Source: Bacillales bacterium UBA7581 (GTDB lineage: Bacteria; Bacillota_I; Bacilli_A; RFN20; CAG-826). Taken from it: a stretch of 64,000 nucleotides of DNA. The DNA is taken from contig DLKT01000014.1 of the NCBI GenBank assembly GCA_002477825.1, positions 1,825 to 65,824 of the forward strand, given 5' to 3'. The translations under genes were made by a program, and so were the position numbers. Below the pieces are notes generated by a model that saw only the letters and a list, made by a program, of their open reading frames with translations, had not been told where the DNA came from and searched no databases. Shown here piece after piece: positions 18,848 through 33,805 of this stretch (position 1 is its first letter; every line of letters starts with the position of its first letter).

Positions 18848-19477
18848 TTAAAAATATTGTTTTTTAATTTTTTTCTTTTTTACACATACTCTTTCGCCAC
18901 TAGATTGGCCAATCTCTTCACAAACGGTATCGACATACCATAACACACCATCAATTTCTTCATAAGGTACTAAACCTAATCCGTGTTCAGAGTCTAATGA
19001 TTTACCCGGATTTCGATTATCACCTAAAACATAATAATAGCCTTTAGGTATGGTTAATTCTTTTCCACAAGCCATGTTATAGGATCCAACGCAAGTTGTT
19101 CTTTTCGTTTGTTCCCATTCCATTTGAGCATCATCGGTTGGAATAAAATTTTGTAATACGATTTTTCCATTAATGGTTATTTCGCCGGTTATATTATCAA
19201 CTGAGACTGTTTCTCCTGGTAAAGCAATAACGCGCTTAATCAAGCGTTCTCCTCTAGCCTTACTATCAAAAATGATGATATCAAACCGTTTGAGATGTTT
19301 TTTTCGATAGGTTGTTCTTATCGTTTTTCCTTCTGATAAATCACCTAATGTAGGTGACATTGAAGTTCCATCAATAATGACTCCACCAGTTAAAAATCGA
19401 AACAAGCAAAAACTAATACTAAAAATAACGACAAGGGCCGTAAAAATATTGAGAATGACTTGTTTTTTCGGTTTCAT
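18848..19477 (-). CDS. lepB: Signal peptidase I (bacterial P-type, LepB/SipS-like)
   Basis: N-terminal TM helix, Ser box DGTSMSPTL, Lys box KRVIALPGE, and GDNRNPGKSLDS. Confidence 0.92.
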   Translation of the reverse strand: MKPKKQVILNIFTALVVIFSISFCLFRFLTGGVIIDGTSMSPTLGDLSEGKTIRTTYRKKHLKRFDIIIFDSKARGERLIKRVIALPGETVSVDNITGEITINGKIVLQNFIPTDDAQMEWEQTKRTTCVGSYNMACGKELTIPKGYYYVLGDNRNPGKSLDSEHGLGLVPYEEIDGVLWYVDTVCEEIGQSSGERVCVKKKKIKKQYF

Positions 19478-20045: not shown

Positions 20046-20366
20046 TTATAGCTTTTCTAGTTTTTCAGTTTCATAGTCTACTACTATGAATGTTCCATCA
20101 TTAATCTTAGATAATCTATTTTTTATTTTTCGAATTAGTTCTAACATTTTATCTTTAGTTTTTTTCTCTAGTTCTTCATTAAACCAACAATTTTGATTAT
20201 GAGAATCAAATTCATAATATGAATCAAATAATTTTCTAGTTTCTTCATTTAGTTTTATCAATTCCAAATCTTTATCAATTAAATCGTAATTAGTTGAAAT
20301 CCCTTCTTCGTCACACACCCACAATATCCCATGAATGAATTCATTCATTAATTTAATTATATACAT
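20046..20366 (-). CDS. Small acidic cytosolic hypothetical protein (106 aa)
   Basis: ORF with GGAG 9 nt before the ATG at 20366. The upstream TTG/ATG extension in the ORF track has no RBS. No family recognised. Very AT-rich. Confidence 0.45.
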   Translation of the reverse strand: MYIIKLMNEFIHGILWVCDEEGISTNYDLIDKDLELIKLNEETRKLFDSYYEFDSHNQNCWFNEELEKKTKDKMLELIRKIKNRLSKINDGTFIVVDYETEKLEKL

Positions 20367-20627
20367 TTCATTTTTCTCCTTTTTCATAGTGCCTATGATT
20401 AAATAGTGTTTTTCATAATTATAGATTCTTTTAAGTTTCATGCTGCTTTTCATATGTCTAAGAGTGGCAGTATTTAATGTTTTTTCTTCTTTTCATAAGA
20501 AGAAATGTTTACACTTTTTTCTTAATGAAAGAATATCATACTTTAGTAAAACATCCCAATTAACTAACATAATAAATCACATAAAAACTCCTCCACCATT
20601 TGATGAAGGAGTTAGAAAGTTCATTTT

Positions 20628-22121
20628 TTATAATAATGGCAGTATCGCCGATAGTGCAAACGATAAAATGAAGAATAAAGTAATGATATAAATAGGTAAA
20701 CATACTTCTTTTCTTCTTTTAGAAAATAACATCATGACGACATAAGCAATTAAGCCAATACCGATGCCTGAGGCAATCGAATAAGTTAAAAGTGAGAATA
20801 TCACCATGATAAAGCCGGTAAAGGCCACTACTCGATCACTAAAGTTAATATCTTTAAAATTACCTACGAAAATCATTGCGCCCACGCACACTAACGCAGG
20901 AGCGGTTACAGAACCTGCTGTAAAGATAGAAAATACTGGATAAATAAATCCGGACAATAAGAACATTAAGCCAGCCACAACCGCTGCTAAACCGGTTTTA
21001 GCCCCCATCTCTACACCAATATTACTTTCAGCAAAAGAAGTAACGGTAGAAGTTCCTAATGGTCCACATACGGCCGCGCCAACAGCGTCCGCTAACACGG
21101 CTTTTTGGTAATTTTCCATTTTTCCTTCTTCGTTAATAATTCCGGTATTTCTTCCTACCGCTAACAAGGTTGCTGTAGTGTCAAACAAGTTAACAAACAT
21201 TAATGAGAAAATAGCAACATAAGAAGTTGGATTAGAGAACACTTTTACGATATCGCTTTGGAAATCTTTTCCCGAATAATTAGAATCTAATAAACCAAAG
21301 AATAAAACGTCTTTTACTCCACTCATGCCCCATTTAGCGCTATCATCAAACCAAGGAGCAATTGGCAATTTAACAGGAAGATCCTTTAAAGCATTACTCT
21401 TATACGCCCACCAACTATCCAATCCTGTTGATGTTGTTACAAGTTCCAAACTTCCAGTTTTAATCATAATAGAAGAAACAATAACGCCTGTAACAGCGGC
21501 AAATAAAATACAAAGTGGGATAGCTAAAGTTGATAAAATTTTATTTTTGGAGAACATCATACCAAAACATAAAACAATACTTACAATAGCGATTAAAGTA
21601 GATGGATTTAATAAACTACCTAAGGTAACAAGCGTTCCACCATCTTGAACGATAATACCTGAATTTTTAAGACCTACAAAGCAAATAAATGCACCTAAGG
21701 CACTTGAAATGATTAATTGTAAATCTTTAGGAATGGATTCAATAATAATTTTACGAATTGGCGTTAATGAGAAAACAAAGAATAATAAGCCAGAAATCGT
21801 AAGTAGAATCATACATTGATGCCAATTAAAACCAGCATTAATCGAAATCGTATAGGCTAAATAAGCATTCAGTCCCATACCTGCGCTTAATACAACTGGA
21901 TAGTTGGCTACAAAGCCCATAATAAATGTGACTAAGGCACCGACTAAAGCGGTCATTGCAAAGACACCCATTGTGTTCATTCCCATTGCGCTTAAAATGG
22001 AAGCATTGACGGGTAAAATGTAGCACATGGCAATAAAAGTAATTAAACCACCAATGACTTCATTTTTAATCGATGATCCTTTTTCCGACACATGGAAAAG
22101 CTTTTCTAAAATTTTTTTCAT
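20628..22121 (-). CDS. NCS2/AzgA-family purine (adenine/guanine/hypoxanthine) permease
   Basis: 497-aa polytopic ORF. The N-terminus FHVSEKGSSIKNEVIGGLITFIAMCYILPVN is typical of PbuG/PbuO/AzgA permeases. Confidence 0.88.
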   Translation of the reverse strand: MKKILEKLFHVSEKGSSIKNEVIGGLITFIAMCYILPVNASILSAMGMNTMGVFAMTALVGALVTFIMGFVANYPVVLSAGMGLNAYLAYTISINAGFNWHQCMILLTISGLLFFVFSLTPIRKIIIESIPKDLQLIISSALGAFICFVGLKNSGIIVQDGGTLVTLGSLLNPSTLIAIVSIVLCFGMMFSKNKILSTLAIPLCILFAAVTGVIVSSIMIKTGSLELVTTSTGLDSWWAYKSNALKDLPVKLPIAPWFDDSAKWGMSGVKDVLFFGLLDSNYSGKDFQSDIVKVFSNPTSYVAIFSLMFVNLFDTTATLLAVGRNTGIINEEGKMENYQKAVLADAVGAAVCGPLGTSTVTSFAESNIGVEMGAKTGLAAVVAGLMFLLSGFIYPVFSIFTAGSVTAPALVCVGAMIFVGNFKDINFSDRVVAFTGFIMVIFSLLTYSIASGIGIGLIAYVVMMLFSKRRKEVCLPIYIITLFFILSFALSAILPLL

Positions 22122-22283
22122 TCTTTTTTTATATAGTCCTCCGCTCTAAAAATGAGACATTTAGACTATATGTTCCTTTCTTTGAGAATATATTTTACAT
22201 TTCTTTTTTTGATTCTCAAGCAAAGAAAAGAAACGCTATTTCAATTTCAAATAGAATAAATTCTCCAGAAATTTACATAGAAA

Positions 22284-22309
22284 GAGTGGAGACTTCTTTT
22301 TCTCCACTC
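22284..22309 (-). terminator. Hairpin terminator downstream of the EF-Tu-like lipoprotein gene
   Basis: Minus strand reads GAGTGGAGA-AAAAGAAG-TCTCCACTC (perfect 9-bp stem) followed by the T-rich TTTCTATGTAAATTT. Confidence 0.55.
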
Positions 22310-22477
22310 CAATTAACTTAATTATAAATAATTGAAAGATGCTTTGCAAGTTTCCGCACCACCAACGCACATATTCTTTTTATGAATAGCGTTACGTTTT
22401 ATCATTTTCAACTTCAAAAAAAATTCATAAGGAAACTAATTTTCTTTATTCTTAATTTTCCTTATCTAATTTCATTG

Positions 22478-23599
22478 TTAGTTTTTATCATTGCTATCTA
22501 TTAAACAAAAAGTAACGTCGTTTTTATTCGCTTTGCCTTCAATAATAATTAAATAAATTTTTCCTGTCTTTAAATTTCCAGTATAAAGCTTATCTTCTTC
22601 ATCATACACCAAGAGAGTAAAATCATCAGCACTTGCACCCACAACGTGCGTTTTCCACTCTTTTTCTAAGTTACTAGAGTCATAAGGTGCAACTCTTAAA
22701 AAATTCTTATGATTTGCTTTTAAATTCGTTTTAAAATAATATCTTCCTTTTGATTCATCAAAATTAAACATCTCATATTGATCAAAAGTACAAACATTAC
22801 AAATCCCCATTTTGTCATAGTTTTCATCATGTTCGTGATGCTCAAGCGCAGTAATTGTACCATAAGCAACTTTTCTACCGCCTTCAACGGCGCCTATTTC
22901 CATACCCTTATCTAAAATAAATTGGGTTTTAAGAATAATCGTAACTTCATGTGTTTCTCCTGCCTTAAAGCATTCTAAATCGCTAGGCAAAAGAATCGAT
23001 CCGTAAACATCTGCCGTATAATAAGTAGTGCCAAGAATAACATTAGGATACAATTTAATAATCAAGTGATATTTGGTAAAGAAGGGCGTGTTTCTTCCAC
23101 CTTCGTCCTTAGTTAAGGTAGTTAAATTTACTTTCAATTGGTTATAATATTGTTTCGTTGAAGGTGTAAAGAGTGAATAGCCTTTTTGAATTTGTTTTCC
23201 ATCCACACCTTCAATAGATAATTCAACTTCTTCTCCTTTTGATGCATTTTCATACGCTTTATTATTTTTTTCAATCCCAGTAATAGTTACATTTTTATCT
23301 AAGTTTGAAAGCGTTAAAATATCGCCTGTTTTCACAGAGCCACTATAGATGGTGCCTGAAACAACTGTTTTTCCGCCAGTGGTTGAAAGTACATCACTAA
23401 TTGGCATAAAGAAAGATTTGTCTTCCGTTGGCGCTACTGTCGTTTGCGTTCCTGTTGTTGAAGTAACTATTGTTGGTTCAGTTGTTGATTGTGTTGGATT
23501 ACCACTTGTTGGTTTTTTATTTCCACAGGCGGTTGCTGTTGAAAGTAAGGAAACCAATAATAAAGAAGCGGTTAAAATAGTTTTTATTGTTTTTTTCAT
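22478..23599 (-). CDS. Lipoprotein containing EF-Tu domain II and III homologs without a GTPase domain, plus an unknown C-terminal domain
   Basis: Signal peptide with lipobox (LLSTATA-C25) and a T/S/P-rich linker. Residues about 60-252 are colinear with EF-Tu domains II-III (FFMPISDV, GGKTVVSGT, VKTGD, ITGIE, LTKDEGGRNTPFF, VEGGRKVAYGTIT). Confidence 0.85.
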   Translation of the reverse strand: MKKTIKTILTASLLLVSLLSTATACGNKKPTSGNPTQSTTEPTIVTSTTGTQTTVAPTEDKSFFMPISDVLSTTGGKTVVSGTIYSGSVKTGDILTLSNLDKNVTITGIEKNNKAYENASKGEEVELSIEGVDGKQIQKGYSLFTPSTKQYYNQLKVNLTTLTKDEGGRNTPFFTKYHLIIKLYPNVILGTTYYTADVYGSILLPSDLECFKAGETHEVTIILKTQFILDKGMEIGAVEGGRKVAYGTITALEHHEHDENYDKMGICNVCTFDQYEMFNFDESKGRYYFKTNLKANHKNFLRVAPYDSSNLEKEWKTHVVGASADDFTLLVYDEEDKLYTGNLKTGKIYLIIIEGKANKNDVTFCLIDSNDKN

Positions 23600-23891
23600 T
23601 GCTTTTCTCCTTGCACGATATGTAATTTAGAAATATGTTTATTAAAATCAATATTTTATACTCATATCAATGAACCCGATTAGGTTCAAAAATTTTTGAT
23701 TTAGAAGTCCTATAGCATATAATCTAAATGAAAAGATTATATTATAATTATGTACTTTAACAAGTTGCATACAACGAATTAAGTCCGCTGTTTCTCCTTA
23801 TCTCTATTCTAGGGATGTATTCTTTTACCCGCGAGACTTAGTTTACTTTCTGAGCCAGGACTCCTATATCTTCTTATTCAGAAAGTAGGCG

Positions 23892-24122
23892 TTGTTCATG
23901 TTTGATTATCATCAAACTTTGTTCGTCGGTATCGACGTCAGTAAAGATTCTAATCAAGTCTGTTTAATCAACTTTGAAAGAAAAAAATTACTGAATAAGT
24001 CCTTCAAAAACAATTTAGAAGGCGCTACTGAGATGAAAACAACGATCATCTCTTATTTATTTAAACACGATTTTGCTTTATCAATTCGCTTTTTAATATC
24101 AAAAATAGAAGACCCTTACTAA
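23892..24122 (+). pseudogene. IS110-family transposase, N-terminal stub of about 55-75 codons
   Basis: LFVGIDVSKDSNQVCLIN...NNLEGATEM matches the DEDD/RuvC-like N-terminus of IS110 transposases. The ORF stops after 76 codons, whereas an intact protein is about 350-400 aa. It is the only plus-strand ORF in the island. Confidence 0.7.
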
Positions 24123-24140
24123 TTCTCATTAGCTTGGGTC
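24100..24140 (-). terminator. Possible terminator of the SipW/TasA-like operon
   Basis: Minus strand reads AGACCC-(20-nt loop)-GGGTCT, then TCTATTTTT, 18 nt after the stop of the 762-aa gene. The long loop makes it weak. Confidence 0.35.
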
Positions 24141-24157
24141 TACGAATCATCAATTTC

Positions 24158-26446
24158 TTATTGTTTATTTATTGTGCAATTTGTATACGAACAATTATTA
24201 AATGTTCCTTCACCAGTCCCTTTGATTTCAGAAGCATCGCTACCAAGTGAAGCAGTAATTGTCGCATTCGTTAGCGTGCAGCCTTCAACAGTGACGTTAG
24301 TTTTAAGTAACCCCACAATTCCTCCAACATTGTTTTCAGCTGTAACATTAATATTCGATATACAATTCTTTATATACACTATAGATGTTGTTTCATTTTC
24401 TCCAGTATGACCAATCATACCTCCAACATATTGTGTTCCTTTTACATAACTTTCTTCTTCTACAGCAATGATACAATTCTTTAAAATATCGGTGGAAGTA
24501 ACATTATAGTTATTTAATACATAATTAGTCGCTTCAATTTTGCCAGCAAAAGCACCAACATTATTCTTTCCATTCACCATGACTTTTCCTTTTAAAGTCA
24601 CATTTTCTAATACACATCCTCCAATTAAATCATAGGAATTACGTTTTCCTTTGAGGCTATAATTTCCGCCACCAAAGACTACACCAACATTATCATTTCC
24701 TGAAACAAAAGCGTTTTCGATAGTTAAGTTTTCCACTTTCATAAATTTATATAGTTGTTGACGGTTATAAGTTGTCATTTTTCCACCTGTAGCAAAAAGA
24801 CCTTTACCATATTCACCAGATGTATCAATGTCATCCGTTGCATTCATTAGCAAATTAGAAATCGTATGTCCATTACCATTAAAGGTACCAACAAAGCCAT
24901 AAATTGGAGTAAACGGTTCATTTTTTAAATCAACATCACATTCTAATTTAACATTACTTAAATATAAACCTTCTCCACTATTTACATAATCACGGAAATA
25001 TTGAAGACCAATTTCTTCATCAATTATGCCACTGTCGCTTGTATAATAGAATCCCTCTCCAAAACGGGAAAGATATATATTGGATTGTGTAAAACTTCCG
25101 ATATAGTTATTTGTTTGGTTCTCGCAAGTTATGGCATAAACCCATGCACCTTTTGATTCATCATATTTCATGAAATCATAAAGGGAACCTTTAATGGTCG
25201 CCGTATTCCCTTTTTCTTGATAACCTAGAATAGAAGCACATCCCCCACTAGAAGTAGAAGTTATTTCTACTATGGATGTATTATCGAAATCTCCTGCGAT
25301 TTCTCTAATTTCCAATTCATCACCATCATAATATCCACAAACACCACCAGCATAAGTAGATGGCGTAACATGAATGTCACTTACAAATGTGCTGTCAATT
25401 GTCGTCGTACCTGTCGCTTTTCCAACAATACCACCACCATATTCCACATTACGAATAGTAACATTCTCAAGACGAATGTTTTCGCTCTTAACCGAAATAT
25501 TCTCTCTCACATTGCCAAATAAAGCACCACCAGCACTTCCGCTTCCTGTACCTTCAAATGTAGCGTTGCGAATTGTTAAATTCTTTACATTGACAGAATT
25601 TGAAACATTTCCAAATAAGCCAACATATTGATCTGCCATCTTGAAGTTTGAAATTGAATAATTGTTTCCATCAAAAGTTCCAGCAAAATTATTTAAAGGA
25701 AGAATGGAAGCTCCTTCTAAGTCAACATTTCCGCCTAAATGAACAACTCTTCCAGCATACGTCTTTCCTTCATTCACATTTTTAACAAATGCATTAAAAT
25801 CTTCTTTTGAACATATATACATTTCATTAGGTTCATTTACTGTATCTGCATTTCCTTGTACAGCCTCAACACGATAAACGATTTTACACGAAGTTCCCTC
25901 ATATTGGTTACTATCCGCACTCTCAGCAAATTCTACACTAACTGGAAATGTTACCGCTGTTTTATTTGTGCCTTCGATTGGATTGAGTGTTTTCCATTCA
26001 GAATTAATTTTCCAAGTAAACTCTCCATCAACGCCTAAGAAAGTTTCTGTTCCTAACGTAATGGTTAATGCTGAAAATAAACCTGTATCATCTGCTTTGG
26101 TGACAACAGTACGATATTTTACAGGGACATCACTATTATTTTGAATATTGATGTTAAATTTTGCACCATCACCTGGCATAAAACGGGCTAAAGACAAGCT
26201 ACCATCACTTAAAAGAGAAATCTCTCCTCCTAAAGTGTGATTATCGCCTAACTCATATCCTTGGTTTAATTGTTTTGTTTGAATACTCGTTTGATCAACA
26301 ACAGCAGTCACATCAACTTTACCTGATTTTACGACAATATTCACTTCGTCTTCAGAAGTAAATAAAGCATAAGTTCCGCCAGCAATAAGACTTGCACTCA
26401 AGCAAATTCCTAATATTGCAGAAGCAATTACATTACTCTTTTTCAT
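24158..26446 (-). CDS. Secreted adhesin-like protein: SipW-type signal peptide, TasA/camelysin-like beta-sandwich, and two GLUG-motif beta-helix modules
   Basis: Start set at the ATG at 26446 (GGGGGA SD). Signal LIAGGTYALFTSED. The TasA-like module ends at QYEGTSCKIVYRVEAVQGN. It is followed by FAGTFDGNNYSISN...YVGLFGN and FVGTFNGNGHTISN...GKGLFATGG, with repeated NVGG(I/V)VG-type GLUG motifs. Confidence 0.8.
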   Translation of the reverse strand: MKKSNVIASAILGICLSASLIAGGTYALFTSEDEVNIVVKSGKVDVTAVVDQTSIQTKQLNQGYELGDNHTLGGEISLLSDGSLSLARFMPGDGAKFNINIQNNSDVPVKYRTVVTKADDTGLFSALTITLGTETFLGVDGEFTWKINSEWKTLNPIEGTNKTAVTFPVSVEFAESADSNQYEGTSCKIVYRVEAVQGNADTVNEPNEMYICSKEDFNAFVKNVNEGKTYAGRVVHLGGNVDLEGASILPLNNFAGTFDGNNYSISNFKMADQYVGLFGNVSNSVNVKNLTIRNATFEGTGSGSAGGALFGNVRENISVKSENIRLENVTIRNVEYGGGIVGKATGTTTIDSTFVSDIHVTPSTYAGGVCGYYDGDELEIREIAGDFDNTSIVEITSTSSGGCASILGYQEKGNTATIKGSLYDFMKYDESKGAWVYAITCENQTNNYIGSFTQSNIYLSRFGEGFYYTSDSGIIDEEIGLQYFRDYVNSGEGLYLSNVKLECDVDLKNEPFTPIYGFVGTFNGNGHTISNLLMNATDDIDTSGEYGKGLFATGGKMTTYNRQQLYKFMKVENLTIENAFVSGNDNVGVVFGGGNYSLKGKRNSYDLIGGCVLENVTLKGKVMVNGKNNVGAFAGKIEATNYVLNNYNVTSTDILKNCIIAVEEESYVKGTQYVGGMIGHTGENETTSIVYIKNCISNINVTAENNVGGIVGLLKTNVTVEGCTLTNATITASLGSDASEIKGTGEGTFNNCSYTNCTINKQ

Positions 26447-26462
26447 TGCTTTTCCCCCACTT

Positions 26463-27134
26463 TTATCTTGCACTTGTTGCTTGAACGGCTTCAACATATA
26501 AATCAATATTTGTTTTTAATCCTTTGGCTTCGTTATTATCGAAGTGAACGTCATTTAACCGATCATCAACAAATTCAATTTTCACTTTAAACACCGATTG
26601 AGCACTTTCATCGTCGTTCACTAAAACTTTGCCACTTGCAATTTCATAATTCTTATTTAGATCTGATAAAAATTCACTGGTTTCTGTTCCATTTTGATTT
26701 GTAATGGTAACTTTGATTTGTTCAGCAAGTTTCTTATCGGTGCCTTCGCCAAGTTTTAAATACACATTGTAATCAAATGCAACAGTCCCCCCATTATTAG
26801 CGATGCACATAGTGGCCGTATAACTAGAAGTTGGAACGATGAGTTCTTCATTATCCATTCCAAACACGTTTTCAGTTGTTCCTTTTGTAAAATCGACTGG
26901 TGCATCGGATGAACTTTGTACAGTTTTTTCTTTTACAATACCATCGTTCTTATCTAATCGATTTTGTACGAGTTCTTTTCTTACAAGTTTAATCTTTAAA
27001 TCTCCTGCTTGTAAATGATTAGTTAATGTAACATCACTGCTCCAAAGAGCATAGGTTCCACCAGCTAATAAAGCGACGCTAAGCATGAGCATCATGCTCG
27101 CCGTCATTAATGTTTTTGTTTTTCTTTTTTCCAT
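26463..27134 (-). CDS. TasA/CalY (camelysin, M73-like) family secreted protein
   Basis: Start at the ATG at 27134 (AAGGGGA SD). SipW-type signal peptide LLAGGTYALWSSDVTLTNHLQAGDLKIKL. C-terminal NNEAKGLKTNIDLYVEAVQ is typical of the family. Confidence 0.82.
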   Translation of the reverse strand: MEKRKTKTLMTASMMLMLSVALLAGGTYALWSSDVTLTNHLQAGDLKIKLVRKELVQNRLDKNDGIVKEKTVQSSSDAPVDFTKGTTENVFGMDNEELIVPTSSYTATMCIANNGGTVAFDYNVYLKLGEGTDKKLAEQIKVTITNQNGTETSEFLSDLNKNYEIASGKVLVNDDESAQSVFKVKIEFVDDRLNDVHFDNNEAKGLKTNIDLYVEAVQATSAR

Positions 27135-27184
27135 TTTAAAAATCCCCTTTCTTTTTATATAAATCATCCATTTGAAACAACAAA

Positions 27185-27832
27185 CTATTTTGCTGCCATT
27201 GATGCTTTATCCTTTGTTAATTCATGTCGATGACTATTTCGACGAATTCTTGCTTTTTCTTTTTTATATGCTTTCTCTTCTTCAATTGCATCCACTGCAA
27301 TTCGAATACTGTCCTTCACCGCAGAGAGCGATTCCCCATCTGTAACCTTTATCACTGCTGGTGCTTGTTTTACTACAACTTTGTTATCATTTACATAGTT
27401 CTTAAATTGAAGATTCGGTATCATTAGTTCACAAACAACGACGCCACGTCGTATCTTTAATCGCACCAAGCTTCTTTTACCAAGTCTAAAATCCTCATAC
27501 TGTGCTTTTTTAAAGTGCTTAATGTTATTAATCATTCCAGCAAATTCAACGATTTCATCATAATATTCTTTGTATTTTGATGAAAGAGCATTATATTTTT
27601 CTAACAAGGTTTCATTTCCTGTAGTAAACTTAACATTCTCGTCATTTTGTTCGACAATCTCATTTTCCACATTCGCAACTGTCGACGCTTCTAGCGTTAC
27701 TTGAGCATCTTCTTTCACTTCTTGCATTTTATGTTCATGCTTTTCTTCTATAATGTCACAACAGACAACTACTACACAAAAAAGACTAAACGCTAAGACT
27801 AATGCGACAAATATGATTAATAAAGTTTGCAT
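27185..27832 (-). CDS. Single-pass membrane protein of unknown function inside the SipW operon
   Basis: 215-aa ORF. It has an N-terminal hydrophobic helix ending in CC, an acidic linker, a globular segment and a basic tail. No family recognised. Confidence 0.6.
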   Translation of the reverse strand: MQTLLIIFVALVLAFSLFCVVVVCCDIIEEKHEHKMQEVKEDAQVTLEASTVANVENEIVEQNDENVKFTTGNETLLEKYNALSSKYKEYYDEIVEFAGMINNIKHFKKAQYEDFRLGKRSLVRLKIRRGVVVCELMIPNLQFKNYVNDNKVVVKQAPAVIKVTDGESLSAVKDSIRIAVDAIEEEKAYKKEKARIRRNSHRHELTKDKASMAAK

Positions 27833-27879
27833 TTGCGACTACCTCCTTTCTTAAATAATATTTTACCTCAAGGCACATG

Positions 27880-28713
27880 CTATTTTTTTTCTTCATCTTT
27901 GCTCAACGACGAGCCTTCTTGAGGAAGATCGGAAATAGGCGGTGCCGTAGATTTATTAGATTTTTGTTGAAGTTCATCAAGTTGACGCCTTAATTCTTTA
28001 ATTTCATTAGCCTGGCTTTCCCAAGCAATGGCTTCTTTTTCTTTCTTTTCTTTATTTAATACGCCAATGATACGAATAATCTGAAAACCAATTAGAGTAA
28101 GACAAGGAATGATAATAATACAAATAATTCCTATAGGACTTCTTAATGCATAAACAATTGAACCAACGAATCGGCTTTGACCAGTTACTCTTCCAATAAT
28201 ATAATTAGGACTATTCTCATCGCTGGTATCAATAATTTGTTGCCCCACACCACTAGAATCTAATTTATTGTCTCCTTCTAACGTTATAATATAGCCCCCT
28301 TGATTTTTTTCTTCTATCTTTACAACGCGGTGAGTAATTGTAACTTGTTTTTGATAAACATATTTAAATGTTAGAACATCTCCAATTCGGAGTGTTTCTA
28401 GCCACTTTTGCTGTTTAGCCTCTTCTTTGGGCATAACTTCGATAAACACACAAGATTTTACAGGAATACTTTTGATTTTATATTCAGACACATCTGTCTG
28501 ATCACATTTTTCCATGGAGCTTGATTGTACAAAACGAAGTTGATACCCAAATATTGTCGCGGCACCATCACTATCTTTTTTTGCCATTACACTTATTGAG
28601 AGAATAAAAATTGCGAAAATCAAAATTAAAAATACAATAATATTCCCCATAAAACTTAGCGCTTTTTTTATTGGTCTCTTTTTTTCATCTGATGGTAATA
28701 CTTTGCTTTCCAT
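27880..28713 (-). CDS. sipW: Signal peptidase I, SipW (ER/archaeal) type, with a long charged C-terminal tail
   Basis: TM1, Ser box VQSSSME, GDVLTF, His box VTITHRVV, EGDNK, RSPIG plus TM2, matching B. subtilis SipW boxes (SGSMEP, GDVITF, VTHRIV, KGDNN, SQPIG). An extra tail of about 58 aa follows. Confidence 0.88.
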   Translation of the reverse strand: MESKVLPSDEKKRPIKKALSFMGNIIVFLILIFAIFILSISVMAKKDSDGAATIFGYQLRFVQSSSMEKCDQTDVSEYKIKSIPVKSCVFIEVMPKEEAKQQKWLETLRIGDVLTFKYVYQKQVTITHRVVKIEEKNQGGYIITLEGDNKLDSSGVGQQIIDTSDENSPNYIIGRVTGQSRFVGSIVYALRSPIGIICIIIIPCLTLIGFQIIRIIGVLNKEKKEKEAIAWESQANEIKELRRQLDELQQKSNKSTAPPISDLPQEGSSLSKDEEKK

Positions 28714-28718
28714 ATTGA

Positions 28719-29219
28719 TTACCTCAATTCCATTGTTTTAGCCAATAAATCAACATAAAAATTTGCTTCAGCACCTTTTGCTTCATTTCCTACGCTTTCT
28801 GGCATTGTATACGTAATTATGATTTGATTTGTTCTCATTCCAAGATTTAATATCTTACTATTGTCGTCTAATAGTTCCTTTAAGGAGTTTTCGATTATGA
28901 CTTGTTTTGTCTCAACTTTTACATTTATATAATTCTTTAATTGATTTTCATCATTATCGCTATCGCGAAAGCTTAGATAAACATTTAAATTCACAATATT
29001 TTTACCATTCAAATGAATCGTATAAGACGTGCTACTTCCCGGATAAATATTTGAAATTTTCGTAGACAAAGTTTGGGTGGTATTTTCCTTTAATGTTACG
29101 CTTACATTCCCAGGCAGTTTATTTTCTTTAGCAATATTAAAATAGACGCCAATTCCAATTAACGCTAATAAAATGCATATCATAGTTAAAACATATTTAA
29201 TTTTCTTATATGCCCCCAT
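28719..29219 (-). CDS. Membrane-anchored TasA/camelysin-fold protein lacking the SipW cleavage motif
   Basis: Start at the ATG at 29219 (GGGGGAG SD 8 nt upstream). TM helix VLTMICILLALIGIGVYF, then IYPGSSTSYTIHLNG and C-terminal GNEAKGAEANFYVDLLA, resembling TasA-family strands. Confidence 0.6.
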   Translation of the reverse strand: MGAYKKIKYVLTMICILLALIGIGVYFNIAKENKLPGNVSVTLKENTTQTLSTKISNIYPGSSTSYTIHLNGKNIVNLNVYLSFRDSDNDENQLKNYINVKVETKQVIIENSLKELLDDNSKILNLGMRTNQIIITYTMPESVGNEAKGAEANFYVDLLAKTMELR

Positions 29220-29348
29220 ATGCTCGTCTCCCCCTATCAAACATTTAAAAATGCTATTAAGCTAATGTCGTATTTCCCAAAAACTTTTGTAAATTTAGAA
29301 ATTTTAATTTAAAAATATTGAAAATAGATTTATTCAATATTGAAAAAT

Positions 29349-29908: not shown

Positions 29909-31753
29909 TTAATTAGCCAGGCTGTTTTTCTTTAATAAAATGGCCCCCATGAAAAGTAATAAACTAAAGGTTGCAATTACAGCAGTAGAAGCCTTCTGGC
30001 ATCCATTTTTCTTTGAAGGCTTGGAAGTTTCATATTCCTGAATTTCAAAAGGTGCTGTATAATAAACCAATTCCATCGATTCATCTTTAAAGGCTGCAAT
30101 CACTGAATATTTGCCACGTTCCTTTTCTTGATAAGAGAAAATCTGTCCTTCAACTTCTATTGTTCCACCTACATAAGTTGTGGCCGTTAAAGTAACAGCC
30201 AAATCCTTAGTGAAATCTTGGCCTTTTTCTAATTTCATATCATTGCCTTTTATTTCAAAAATTCGGTTGGTAAAATAATCGGCAATATTGTTTGTAATAC
30301 CAATAAGACCATTTTTGATACAGGTGTGCTTCATATTGTAAATATTATCAATCGTCCAATACCAACCAATATAACCTCTATCGCGTAAATATAATTCGTT
30401 AAATTCCTTAGAAAATGCATTAAGCGCCGAATCAATACCCGCATTCAATCTTCCCAATAAAGCAAGGTTTTTATCAAATGTTTTTTCACTTACATTTCCT
30501 AAGTAAGCTGTAGGAATCATTGGAAGATTATTTTTCACTCTTTCTAATGCTGTAGTAGAGAAAGAGATAATTACGATTTGATCATACAATTGATATTGAT
30601 CGAGTTTTTCTTTTAGTAAAGTGGGAAAATTTTCCTTTTCTGTTTTTACTTCTAAAACAAGAATCGTTTGGGTATCTTTTAACGTTTGGAAAATATCATC
30701 AACATTAGGAATTTTTTCGTTTGGCTTATAAACATCTAATTCAAATTTTTCTAATTCTTCGGAGGTGTAATTCTCGAGAGAACCAGTGCCTGATGTAGTA
30801 CGGTCAATCGTTCCATCATGCATAAAATAAATTTTATTATCTTTGGTAACATATGCATCTAATTCGACGTGAGTCGCACCAACTTCCATTGCTTTTTTTG
30901 TTCCACTTACAGAGTTTTCATGAGCTTGTTTAGGTAATCCACGATGACCGACATTAAAGAAAGGGCGGAAAGCCGTACCTTCTTCTAATTGCTCAAATAG
31001 TTCATATATGTGTTCATAGTCTTTTACAATTAATCCATATGTCCCTGTTTGTAAAGCCGAATAAATATCAAAATCTGTTTCTTTATCCAATCTTGTCCAA
31101 ACCGTTTTAAAACGAGCATGAACATATGTGACGTTCTCTTTTGTAGCTAAAGAAGAAGGAAGTACAGCGACTTGTGCTAGATTTTCATTGGTAGGAGCAA
31201 CAACCATTTCATATAAGTTTTTCTCTTCCGATAATTCACTATATTCAACAATACCACGAATTTTGGTATTAGTTTCTCTTATTGTTTTTACATAGGATGG
31301 TGTATTAGAAAGAACCGCCATATCTAGCATATCCAATTGTGTTTTTGAAAATTTCATAAAGGCGTTCATACTATTTTCATCTTGAATGGATAAAATTGGA
31401 ATGATAAAAGGTGTTATCTCGTTATAAACATTGATAAAAGAGTCAATAACATTACCCTCTTTATCTATGATATTTGCATTTTCATCAAAATGTAAGATGA
31501 CGTTAGAAGGCCGCGTATCCGTTGTTACCACTTTATCTAAATCATCTTTAGATTCAACGTCAACAATTAAGGTAGGCAAATTTCTTACTGCCGTCTCATA
31601 TTCAAATGTCTCGATAAGTTCATTATCTGTAATAAGTCCTGTTTCATTTGCATTTTTGTTTTCAGCGTTAGCTTTAACGCTTTTTGAAGTTTGGAAAAAA
31701 TTACAACTTGCAAACAAAAAAGCGCCTATCATCAATAAAGGTATTCTTTTCAT
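29909..31753 (-). CDS. Surface lipoprotein glycerophosphodiester phosphodiesterase, paralog 1
   Basis: Lipobox LFASC. An N-terminal domain of about 250 aa is of unknown family. GDPD core: HRGLPKQAHENS, GATHVELDAYVTKDNKIYFMHDGTIDRTT. C-terminal hydrophobic anchor. Confidence 0.85.
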   Translation of the reverse strand: MKRIPLLMIGAFLFASCNFFQTSKSVKANAENKNANETGLITDNELIETFEYETAVRNLPTLIVDVESKDDLDKVVTTDTRPSNVILHFDENANIIDKEGNVIDSFINVYNEITPFIIPILSIQDENSMNAFMKFSKTQLDMLDMAVLSNTPSYVKTIRETNTKIRGIVEYSELSEEKNLYEMVVAPTNENLAQVAVLPSSLATKENVTYVHARFKTVWTRLDKETDFDIYSALQTGTYGLIVKDYEHIYELFEQLEEGTAFRPFFNVGHRGLPKQAHENSVSGTKKAMEVGATHVELDAYVTKDNKIYFMHDGTIDRTTSGTGSLENYTSEELEKFELDVYKPNEKIPNVDDIFQTLKDTQTILVLEVKTEKENFPTLLKEKLDQYQLYDQIVIISFSTTALERVKNNLPMIPTAYLGNVSEKTFDKNLALLGRLNAGIDSALNAFSKEFNELYLRDRGYIGWYWTIDNIYNMKHTCIKNGLIGITNNIADYFTNRIFEIKGNDMKLEKGQDFTKDLAVTLTATTYVGGTIEVEGQIFSYQEKERGKYSVIAAFKDESMELVYYTAPFEIQEYETSKPSKKNGCQKASTAVIATFSLLLFMGAILLKKNSLAN

Positions 31754-31954: not shown

Positions 31955-33805
31955 TTATTTAGCAAAACTACTTTTCTTTAGTACGATAGCGCCTAAGAAC
32001 ACTAACAAACTAAAGGAAGCAATGACGGCCGTTGAAGCCTTTTGACAACCACTCTTTTTCGGCGGATTCACGATTTCTTCTTCGCCATCTTGAATCTCAA
32101 AAGGTGCGGTATAGTATGTAAGACTTGTTGAATAATCAGTGTAATAAGCAATAACAGAATACTTGCCTTTCTCAATTTCTTGATAGAAATAAATTTGTCC
32201 TACTACTTTTGTCTCTTCACCTTTATATGTTATAGCGGTTAAAGGAACAACCGTATCTTTAGAAAGGGTTTGTCCTTTTCCTAATTGCATATGATTTCCT
32301 TTTAAAGAATAAACTTTATCGCTAAAATAATCTGCGACATTATTGGTAATTCCAACAGCACCACTTTGTGGTCCCATATTTTCAATAGAAGAAACATTAT
32401 CGTAAGTCCAGAACCAACCAATGAAACCTCTATCTCTTAAATAGAGTTCATTAAATCTCGTTGAAAAGGCACCCATAGAAGTATCTACGCCAGCATTCAT
32501 TTGTCCTAATAAAGGTAAAGCTTTCGTAAAATTACTTTGGTTTACACTTCCTAAATATGCAGTTGGTACTTCAGGTAAAACATCTTTCATTTGTTCTAAC
32601 ATTGAGCTTGAGAAAGAGATCACCACGATTTGAGGATAGAAATTATATTCATCCAATTTTTCCTTTAATAAAGTAGTAAAATTTGCTTTGGTCGTTTTAA
32701 TTTCTAAAACCAAAATAGTTGACGTTCCTTGTAATGTTTGAATAATCTCATCAATATTAGGAATTTTTTCATGTGGTTCAAATAAATCAAGTTCATATTT
32801 TTCTAATTCTTCGGATGTATAGTTTTCTAAAGCACCTTCACCATTAGACGTACGCATAATCGTGCCATCATGCATAAAATAAATTTTATTATCTTTAGTA
32901 ACATAAGCATCTAATTCAACATGTGTTGCTCCTACTTCTGTTGCTTTTTTCGTACCACTTATAGAATTTTCATGTGTTTGCTTTGGAAGTCCTCTATGTG
33001 CCACATTAAATGATGGACGGAAAGAACTACCCTCTTTTATTTGCGTGTACATTTCATATACATGCTCATAATCTTTAACAATCAATCCATACGTTCCCGT
33101 TTGAATTGCTGAAAGAATATCTAAATCCGTTTCACCCGTTAATCGTGTCCAAACAGTTTTAAAACGAGCTTGAATGTAAGTGACATTTTCTTTTGTTGCT
33201 ATAGAAGGAGAAAGCACCGCTACATTAGCAAAATGAGCGTTCGTAGGAGCGATAACCGAATGATACATATCTCCATCAGTGATATCGTTATATTCAATAA
33301 TTCCACGTATTTTGTTATTTTCATCCTTAATCCCTTTTATATAGTCAGGTGTGTCGGACATAATTGATAAGTCAAGAATATCCATTTTATTTTTAAAGAA
33401 ATCCACAAATGCAATATAACTGTCTTGATTTTCAATATAAACAATCGGCAAAATCTTTTTATTTAGTTGCGCATAAACATTAACGAAAGAATCAATAACA
33501 TTTCCTTCTTTATCGGTAATATTTTGATCTTTATTCATGTGTAAAATTACATTCGATGGTCGAACTTCTGTACTCGTTACTTTGGTTAATTGTTCTTTTG
33601 ATTCAATATCCACAATTACGGTAGGAAGATTATTCGCGACCGTTCCTTGATAATACGTTGAAGCTAAATTGTTATCGACCACTAATTCTTCGCTTGATGT
33701 TTCATCCGCCAAAGCTCTTTTTTCCATTTTAGGGGATTGAAATAAACATGCACCAATACATAAAAATAAGCTTAATGATAAAAGTTTTCTTCTTTTCATA
33801 TTCAT
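31955..33805 (-). CDS. Surface lipoprotein glycerophosphodiester phosphodiesterase, paralog 2
   Basis: Lipobox CIGAC. Colinear with paralog 1 over its full length (HRGLPKQTHENS, GATHVELDAYVTKDNKIYFMHDGTIMRT). Same C-terminal tail. Confidence 0.85.
   Translation of the reverse strand: MNMKRRKLLSLSLFLCIGACLFQSPKMEKRALADETSSEELVVDNNLASTYYQGTVANNLPTVIVDIESKEQLTKVTSTEVRPSNVILHMNKDQNITDKEGNVIDSFVNVYAQLNKKILPIVYIENQDSYIAFVDFFKNKMDILDLSIMSDTPDYIKGIKDENNKIRGIIEYNDITDGDMYHSVIAPTNAHFANVAVLSPSIATKENVTYIQARFKTVWTRLTGETDLDILSAIQTGTYGLIVKDYEHVYEMYTQIKEGSSFRPSFNVAHRGLPKQTHENSISGTKKATEVGATHVELDAYVTKDNKIYFMHDGTIMRTSNGEGALENYTSEELEKYELDLFEPHEKIPNIDEIIQTLQGTSTILVLEIKTTKANFTTLLKEKLDEYNFYPQIVVISFSSSMLEQMKDVLPEVPTAYLGSVNQSNFTKALPLLGQMNAGVDTSMGAFSTRFNELYLRDRGFIGWFWTYDNVSSIENMGPQSGAVGITNNVADYFSDKVYSLKGNHMQLGKGQTLSKDTVVPLTAITYKGEETKVVGQIYFYQEIEKGKYSVIAYYTDYSTSLTYYTAPFEIQDGEEEIVNPPKKSGCQKASTAVIASFSLLVFLGAIVLKKSSFAK

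Follow-up and report, generated by a model that had tools for sequence, protein, structure and literature searches.

We here describe a gene for a predicted surface lipoprotein that is built from two of the three domains of the translation elongation factor EF-Tu. The gene lies on a stretch of 64,000 nucleotides (nt) from Bacillales bacterium UBA7581 (contig DLKT01000014.1), and we refer to this whole stretch as the window. Its open reading frame (ORF) starts with ATG and encodes 373 amino acids (aa) on the minus strand; in the ORF list it spans positions 22478-23599, exactly where an earlier note on this DNA had placed it. We conclude that the protein descends from EF-Tu minus the GTPase domain, that it carries a predicted signal for lipoprotein-type (Sec) export, and that it belongs to a small group of modular surface lipoproteins in uncultured gut Bacilli, which is maintained by selection.

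The similarity to EF-Tu covers domains II and III. When the whole window was searched with E. coli EF-Tu (tblastn), the sole match (E=4e-23) paired nt 23422-22844 with EF-Tu residues 208-392. The same search detected no genuine tuf and no second EF-Tu-like sequence in the window, and hence no nearby tuf that could have given rise to the gene by a recent duplication. Within the protein, Pfam recognised GTP_EFTU_D2 (PF03144) at residues 78-141 (3.6e-9, 37.4 bits against a cut-off of 30.3) and GTP_EFTU_D3 (PF03143) at residues 153-252 (3.4e-6, 27.8 bits against a cut-off of 27); the latter match is stronger in relatives of the protein (up to 5.6e-16). The EF-Tu models of NCBIfam matched with 1.9e-32 and covered only profile positions 208-394 of 396, with scores of 107-113 bits against cut-offs of 449-522 (for TIGR00485, 106.8 against 522.4). 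A phmmer comparison with the EF-Tu chains in PDB gave E=2.7e-25. Pfam detected no GTPase domain (PF00009) in the protein, and only 59 residues, which make up the signal peptide and a linker, precede domain II. The absence of domain I, which the earlier note had claimed, thus holds.

In the AlphaFold2 model (24 sequences), residues 1-59 have predicted local distance difference test (pLDDT) values below 50, and most residues between 60 and about 370 exceed 90. Foldseek aligned the model with domains II and III of EF-Tu (E=2.5e-16, ~196 columns, 2.2-2.5 A); both barrels and their mutual orientation are thus preserved. Structure comparison, which the earlier note had named as a check, thus yields a highly significant similarity, and the match that it had proposed for residues 60-252 is borne out by tblastn, Pfam, NCBIfam, phmmer and AlphaFold2/Foldseek alike. 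The insertion that it had described in domain III is also present; its size had been overestimated, as it comprises 10 aa (residues 185-194) and not about 12. This insertion is specific to a sub-clade of the family and is shorter or absent in the distant members P0042 and P0043.

The second component of the main finding is the predicted export signal. The N-terminus MKKTIKTILTASLLLVSLLSTATAC matches a lipoprotein rule of the PROSITE PS51257 type, with the lipobox stretch LVSLLSTATAC and the lipid-accepting position at Cys25. There are three Lys residues in the n-region, and the h-region has a mean Kyte-Doolittle value of 2.09. By this pattern rule, the protein has the features of a bacterial lipoprotein, namely a basic n-region, a hydrophobic h-region and a lipobox Cys within the first ~40 residues. 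The lipobox Cys is invariant in 9/9 close members of the family (alignment A1). Among the 15 full-length members with the EF-Tu module, 13 conform to the strict rule and the other two have near-lipoboxes that are followed by GKK. These patterns predict that the gene product is exported as a lipoprotein by the Sec route and that it is lipidated at Cys25. The linker that follows (residues 26-59) contains 12 Thr, 3 Ser and 4 Pro among its 34 residues and occupies the position of the zinc-binding repeats of the relatives in alignment A1. Both elements had been recognised in the earlier note: the lipobox pattern at Cys25 matches and is kept across the family, and the linker is indeed rich in Thr, Ser and Pro and is modelled as disordered.

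The 15 family sequences were mapped on E. coli numbering and compared at 88 positions of domains II-III whose conservation among 61 EF-Tu sequences reaches at least 90%. Domains II-III of the family have 29-38% identity to these 61 real EF-Tu sequences, which among themselves have a mean identity of 72% and a minimum of 60%. The more distant family members are more similar to EF-Tu: P0042 matches an NCBIfam EF-Tu model with 4e-41, P0043 matches EF-Tu in PDB with 1.9e-39, and both are without the long insertion in domain III. Because the distant members are more EF-Tu-like, we conclude that the family originated from bona fide EF-Tu domains II-III and that the clade of the window protein is more derived.

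The retained residues are mainly those of the scaffold. At the 88 positions, the family retains 69% of the Gly and Pro residues and 36% of the others. The retained scaffold includes the FxMPIxD motif, G229, G234, G271, G280, G289, the EGGRxTPF loop, G339, the MPG and EGG motifs and G386. Retention is 41% in the pocket for the aminoacyl group and the CCA end, where E215 is found in 2/15, N273 in 1/15 and F261 in 4/15 sequences, and 43% at the contacts to the tRNA T-stem, where H319 and R377 are each found in 3/15. The site of the thiopeptide GE2270A is 33% retained (R223 in 3/15, G257 in 5/15, N273 in 1/15 and G275 in 6/15), and R230, R333 and R373, which are universal in EF-Tu, occur in none of the 15 sequences. 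Since the residues of the pocket and the T-stem contacts are lost and domain I is missing, handling of aminoacyl-tRNA in the manner of EF-Tu is ruled out. We also used the net charge of domains II-III as a test for the loss of RNA binding; it is close to that of EF-Tu and does not discriminate, because Arg has mostly been replaced by Lys in this AT-rich lineage.

The C-terminal part of the protein is a 121-aa beta-sandwich that is specific to the family. When modelled separately with AlphaFold2, it reaches a pLDDT of 92. It has no Pfam or NCBIfam family, which agrees with the earlier note, where a Cys/His-containing C-terminal domain of about 120 aa had been reported as unrecognised. The domain begins with an HxH...CxxC motif (H255, H257, C267 and C270). 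All 15 sequences share H257, C267 and C270, and at least 90% of them have H255. As the zinc-binding domain (ZBD) repeats found in the relatives use the same His2Cys2 ligand set, we propose that the motif is a putative structural zinc site. A Foldseek search against PDB returned no match at E<=1e-3; the best were PliG (3e-3), PPC (8e-2) and C-CPE (1.5e-1), and no significant match was found in the viral structure library BFVD. The weak fold resemblances, with TM scores of ~0.5 (about 0.45-0.55), are to PliG, botulinum HA70, GOLD, PPC/collagen-binding and C-CPE domains. These sandwiches are alike in shape and have 6-15% identity to the C-terminal domain, which is not evidence of membership.

The protein recurs across data sets and has a well-delimited set of relatives. 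Eleven contigs of independent assemblies (NCBI, ENA and Logan; GCA_002438695.1 among them) carry the exact window protein, which rules out an assembly chimera; the same protein, or a variant that differs by one residue, recurs in many independent assemblies. The ORFs are uninterrupted across the window under the standard genetic code. A first search of 5.8 billion proteins detected one near-identical protein and eight relatives of 440-532 aa with 51-63% identity. These eight relatives are without PF00009, and the next matches were true EF-Tu proteins with 31-35% identity. An exhaustive HMMER search with the C-terminal 121 aa against 1.84 billion representatives found the domain in only eight clusters at 50% identity, among which P0041, P0042, P0043 and P0045 are more distant lipoproteins with EF-Tu domains II-III. 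A profile search with domains II-III and the C-terminal domain together brought in P0069 and P0070. True EF-Tu proteins came next, at E ~1e-39 to 1e-40 and thus more than 50 orders of magnitude behind. The family with the EF-Tu module thus comprises ~15 clusters (P0001-P0009, P0041-P0043, P0045, P0069 and P0070), all without PF00009, and no member is named in any source annotation. Within the family, the signal peptide and linker of the window protein are similar to those of P0003, and its C-terminal domain is similar to that of P0002.

A further protein with the C-terminal beta-sandwich, P0044 (484 aa, from an ENA metagenome), contains Flg_new, one ZBD repeat and a domain of the type of a 183-aa lipoprotein described below (1e-7), and is without domains II-III. 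Because P0044 combines a repeat and the C-terminal domain without domains II-III, the EF-Tu part behaves as a swappable cassette.

In unsaturated pairs, the ratio of nonsynonymous to synonymous substitution rates (dN/dS, Nei-Gojobori) is 0.19-0.26 for domains II-III and 0.10-0.32 for the C-terminal domain. This indicates purifying selection on the family that is weaker than expected of a translation factor. A decayed tuf pseudogene was ruled out by the intact frame, the ~15 related clusters and the dN/dS of 0.1-0.3. On each point that the earlier note had listed as able to overturn its proposal, the opposite was found: the similarity to EF-Tu is significant, the signal and lipobox are kept, and the gene is under purifying selection and has intact orthologues. 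As to the host, a scan of species-representative genomes detected a single carrier of the family, a metagenome-assembled genome (MAG) of an uncultured Bacilli bacterium from Hadza gut samples. TopA encoded in the window has unnamed relatives with 71-75% identity, and its closest named relatives (55-57%) are MAGs of Bacilli, Bacillales and Erysipelotrichales/Erysipelotrichaceae.

In most of the relatives, one to seven His2Cys2 repeats (~65 aa, pattern HxHTF..W....HWH..TCxH ... TFTCxxCG) replace or follow the Thr-rich linker; the window protein has none. These repeats are homologous to the C-terminal region (ZBD1/2) of the IgA protease of Thomasclavelia ramosa (PDB 9QA6 chain A, E=7e-13). In the IgA protease, tentative structural zinc sites of two His and two Cys each have been assigned to ZBD1 and ZBD2, which are reported to be connected by flexible linkers and not to be needed for catalysis (PMC12237041). 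Because the ZBDs of the IgA protease are flexibly linked and dispensable for catalysis, we read the repeats of the relatives as a stalk.

The genes of the relatives are embedded in a conserved same-strand block, which was observed at the loci of P0003, P0004, P0005, P0006 and the distant P0041. In order, it encodes a seven-transmembrane histidine kinase (7TM-HK, ~560 aa), a histidine kinase (HK) of 425 aa that weakly resembles the envelope-stress kinases MadS/LiaS, a LuxR-type response regulator (216 aa), a 127-aa receiver-like protein, a 183-188-aa lipoprotein, the EF-Tu-derived lipoprotein, and a ~552-aa lipoprotein with Flg_new and DUF6273. The 127-aa protein has 63% identity between locus L004 and the distant locus L012. 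At the P0041 locus, the 183-aa gene is absent, and residues 106-221 of P0041 itself are homologous to the 183-aa lipoprotein (E=4e-9). This fusion argues that the 183-aa lipoprotein and the EF-Tu-derived lipoprotein may act together. Flg_new (Listeria-Bacteroides) repeats are found in P0041 and P0044. DUF6273 has a C-type-lectin-like fold, which is also that of the N-terminal domain of the IgA protease and of the variable domain of phage receptor-binding proteins diversified by diversity-generating retroelements (PMC12402451, PMC10743442). Of the usual operon partners, tblastn detected neither the two-component system nor the 127-, 183- or 552-aa protein in the window.

With moderate confidence, we suggest that the EF-Tu-derived lipoprotein is an exapted surface module of the binding or adhesin type. 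Lipidation at Cys25 would hold the protein on the outer face of the membrane, and the linker, or the zinc-binding stalk repeats in the relatives, would project the double barrel and the beta-sandwich away from the cell. This head would then bind an extracellular macromolecule, in the manner of an adhesin or receptor; the most plausible ligand would be of the host mucosa or otherwise environmental. A role as a translation factor is not expected, as the residues for tRNA and the ribosome/antibiotic sites are not conserved while the Gly and Pro residues of the fold are kept. In the relatives, the protein would act with the 183-aa lipoprotein and the C-type-lectin-like lipoprotein, and control by a dedicated two-component system is probable. 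The residue analysis argues against aminoacyl-tRNA binding and leaves an adhesin or ligand-binding scaffold as the most plausible role. A precedent exists in Mycoplasma pneumoniae, where the fibronectin-binding regions of surface EF-Tu comprise the beginning of domain II and the larger part of domain III (PMC5593925).

Several observations weigh against this proposal. The lipobox call comes from a pattern rule and not from a trained predictor, and Ala at position -3 is atypical. The C-terminal sandwich is without a significant structural relative and thus gives no functional clue. The window copy has neither stalk repeats nor operon partners and may differ from its relatives in function. Finally, the recurrent adjacency to a two-component system would fit a sensing-accessory or envelope-stress role just as well.

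The last point leads to an alternative that we consider unlikely, although it has the most to say for it among those weighed here: the lipoprotein could serve the adjacent two-component system from outside the cell as an accessory or co-sensor, with a head that captures a signal for the 7TM kinase, or it could be an envelope-stress effector whose expression this system induces. In loci L001, L004-L009 and the distant L012, the block of 7TM-HK, HK, regulator and 127-aa protein lies directly upstream of the lipoprotein genes, and both the conservation of the 127-aa protein up to L012 and the weak likeness of the 425-aa kinase to MadS/LiaS fit such a role. However, no two-component system is found near the window copy or P0042, and no known co-sensor has the fold of EF-Tu domains II-III. 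A simpler explanation of the conserved adjacency is that the system controls transcription of the surface proteins.

It is improbable that the protein serves as a surface mimic of EF-Tu, that is, as a decoy for thiopeptides of the GE2270A class, EF-Tu-requiring toxins, phage proteins, or host antibodies or receptors. A decoy would profit from the preserved fold and inter-domain geometry of domains II-III and from the extracellular location, and the linked regulators are of the envelope-stress type. However, with a third of the GE2270A-site residues retained, a canonical thiopeptide-binding decoy is unlikely as judged from the sequence, and the low identity to real EF-Tu makes for poor epitope mimicry. 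The protein also matches no defence model in PADLOC; its usual operon partners are likewise unmatched there, except for marginal matches of the response regulator to models of the helix-turn-helix type. The PHROGs models gave no match to the lipoprotein.

The two remaining alternatives concern the surroundings of the window copy (Table 1). The gene is flanked by a camelysin-like (Peptidase_M73) cluster and by a nucleobase permease gene (Xan_ur_permease), which begins 356 nt downstream on the same strand. This neighbour, together with the fact that domains II and III of EF-Tu supply much of the binding surface for aminoacyl-tRNA, would fit a protein that binds extracellular RNA or aminoacyl-tRNA for the scavenging of nucleosides or amino acids. 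We regard this as very improbable: the pocket and T-stem contacts are less than half retained, several universal Arg are replaced, half of the tRNA site is missing along with domain I, and the permease has its own leader with a hairpin and is not a neighbour at any other locus of the family.

Directly upstream of the lipoprotein gene, there is an N-terminal fragment of a transposase of the insertion sequence (IS) family IS110. The same fragment gene in L013 has a weak match to PF01548. In three other assemblies, the contigs (L014, L015 and L016) end just upstream of the lipoprotein gene, which is consistent with a repeated element at this site. We take the IS110 fragment to mark a rearrangement that parted the window gene from the usual operon context, and the window copy to be a solitary derivative that carries no repeats and has a ribosome-binding site of its own. 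The missing repeats and operon partners, the adjoining IS110 fragment and the raised dN/dS of the C-terminal domain (0.55 against P0003) could raise the suspicion that this copy is in decay or has lost its function, as a truncated paralogue left behind by the IS-mediated rearrangement. This is hardly credible given the intact frame of 373 codons with a strong ribosome-binding site, the recurrence of the same or a one-residue-variant protein in many independent assemblies, the dN/dS of 0.25 for domains II-III against P0002 and the modelling of both folded domains at pLDDT >90.

Table 1. Features of the lipoprotein gene, of its surroundings in the window and of the operon-type loci in relatives (positions in the window unless a locus is given)
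Feature	Position	Strand	Evidence or remark
Whole coding sequence of the EF-Tu-derived lipoprotein	22478..23599	-	373 codons + TAA stop
Shine-Dalgarno AAGGAG	23607..23612	-	7 nt 5' of the lipoprotein ATG; sequence read
Promoter-like TTGTTA-16-TATAAT, 5' of the lipoprotein gene	23736..23763	-	consensus match only
Predicted signal peptide and lipobox, MKKTIKTILTASLLLVSLLSTATA followed by C (Cys25)	23525..23599	-	PS51257-type pattern
Thr/Ser/Pro-rich disordered linker, residues 26-59	23423..23524	-	composition; pLDDT <50
EF-Tu domain II beta-barrel, residues 60-146 (E. coli EF-Tu 208-295)	23162..23422	-	PF03144, PDB, Foldseek, residue mapping
EF-Tu domain III beta-barrel, residues 147-252 (E. coli EF-Tu 296-392)	22844..23161	-	PF03143, PDB, Foldseek, residue mapping
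Conserved DEGGRNTPFF loop in domain III	23078-23107	-	
Domain III insertion PNVILGTTYY, residues 185-194	23018..23047	-	HMMER alignment gaps to EF-Tu; family alignment
C-terminal beta-sandwich, 121 aa, family-specific	22481..22843	-	separate AlphaFold2 model; HMMER search
HxH...CxxC motif (putative zinc site), start of the C-terminal domain	22790..22837	-	conservation in 15 sequences
IS110-family transposase N-terminal fragment	23892..24122	+	PHROG transposase 6.8e-7
Camelysin/TasA-like (Peptidase_M73) secreted proteins (782 + 234 aa) plus three unannotated ORFs (215, 277 and 173 aa)	24158-29240, 18848-19477	-	
Two tandem paralogues of ~615 aa with a GDPD domain	29909-31753, 31955-33805	-	
10-bp hairpin in the permease leader	22283-22310	-	
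135-aa ORF	20046-20453	-	no Pfam match
Operon-type loci in relatives	L004 3199-13150; L007; L008; L012 5785-12058		L004 adds a 577-aa lipoprotein

Regarding expression signals, the number of promoter-like sites near the lipoprotein gene is not above the expectation from shuffled sequences, so that the promoter-like site in Table 1 is weak evidence. No RNA elements were found around the gene at the Rfam gathering score, nor at E<=1 across 22050-24200.

Some further observations were made on the neighbourhood. In one sequencing run (Logan ERR8981346), both the full-operon P0003 version (L005) and the solitary gene of the window type (L015) are present. The adjoining block rplS - signal peptidase - rbgA - rnhB - dprA - topA has a gene order that we take to be typical of Bacilli. 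An S26 signal peptidase is located ~5 kb from the Peptidase_M73 cluster with its camelysin/TasA-like secreted proteins, an arrangement reminiscent of TasA/SipW fibre loci. A glycerophosphodiester phosphodiesterase (GDPD) domain is present in two tandem paralogues. The G+C-rich hairpin in the 356-nt leader of the permease gene (xanthine/uracil family) has no Rfam match at E<=1 and is thus not a recognised purine riboswitch. A small ORF between the permease gene and rplS is conserved in position in L013-L015.

Among known systems, the first comparison is to EF-Tu itself (tuf; TIGR00485, PF00009+PF03144+PF03143). Domains II-III are homologous, with the same double beta-barrel and orientation (E as low as 1e-32 in the window protein and 4e-41 in its relatives). 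In contrast to EF-Tu, the window protein has no GTPase domain and instead has an export signal, a predicted lipid anchor and an extra C-terminal beta-sandwich. When tested for membership in EF-Tu, it has domains II and III, whereas the G domain, a score above the curated cut-off and the contact residues for aminoacyl-tRNA are missing.

The second comparison is to the moonlighting surface EF-Tu of Mollicutes, staphylococci and lactobacilli, which binds fibronectin, plasminogen, heparin and mucin (PMC5593925, PMC6822514). Both systems involve material of domains II and III on the surface of bacteria of the low-G+C Gram-positive lineage, where the exposure of the window protein is predicted. However, moonlighting EF-Tu is the full-length cytosolic factor without a signal peptide, whereas the window gene is separate and diverged and encodes only domains II-III with a lipoprotein signal.

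Thirdly, the family resembles the IgA protease of T. ramosa (IgAse/ThomasA, 9QA6), as its Cys/His repeats are homologues of the ZBDs and the protein encoded downstream in relatives has DUF6273. Both are surface proteins of human-gut Bacilli. In contrast to the IgA protease, which has a sortase motif, the family has a predicted lipid anchor and no M64 peptidase domain, and the window protein itself has no ZBD repeat, only the HxH...CxxC motif (residues 255-270).

The earlier note had stated that no such case was described, and we found none in Pfam, NCBIfam, the source annotations or the literature searched, which yielded nothing relevant on an exported or GTPase-less protein of EF-Tu domains II-III. 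What is new here is that known domains occur in a new architecture and at a new cellular location, presumably in a new role, with the function as proposed above. EF-Tu is among the most conserved proteins, and its presence on the surface has been reported for decades. To our knowledge, there is no secretion route for surface EF-Tu and no proof of its adaptive value. It is a tentative possibility that the family represents the first genetic resolution of the long-debated moonlighting of EF-Tu at the surface: domains II-III would have been duplicated, would have gained a lipoprotein signal and a zinc-stabilised stalk, and would now form the head of an adhesin for host or mucus in gut Bacilli, working with a C-type-lectin-like lipoprotein that is built from the module set of the IgA protease.

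The surface lipoproteins described here form a previously unannotated family in uncultured Bacilli of the human gut. Modules in common with the IgA protease (ZBD repeats and DUF6273) suggest a wider toolkit for interaction with the host. There is also a practical consequence, as proteins of this kind could wrongly be labelled 'elongation factor Tu, partial' and confuse marker analyses based on tuf. A copy of domains II-III that is separately encoded, selected and exported implies that this fold can take on a task outside the cell, and as a non-essential gene it would offer a clean handle on extracellular binding by barrels of the EF-Tu type.

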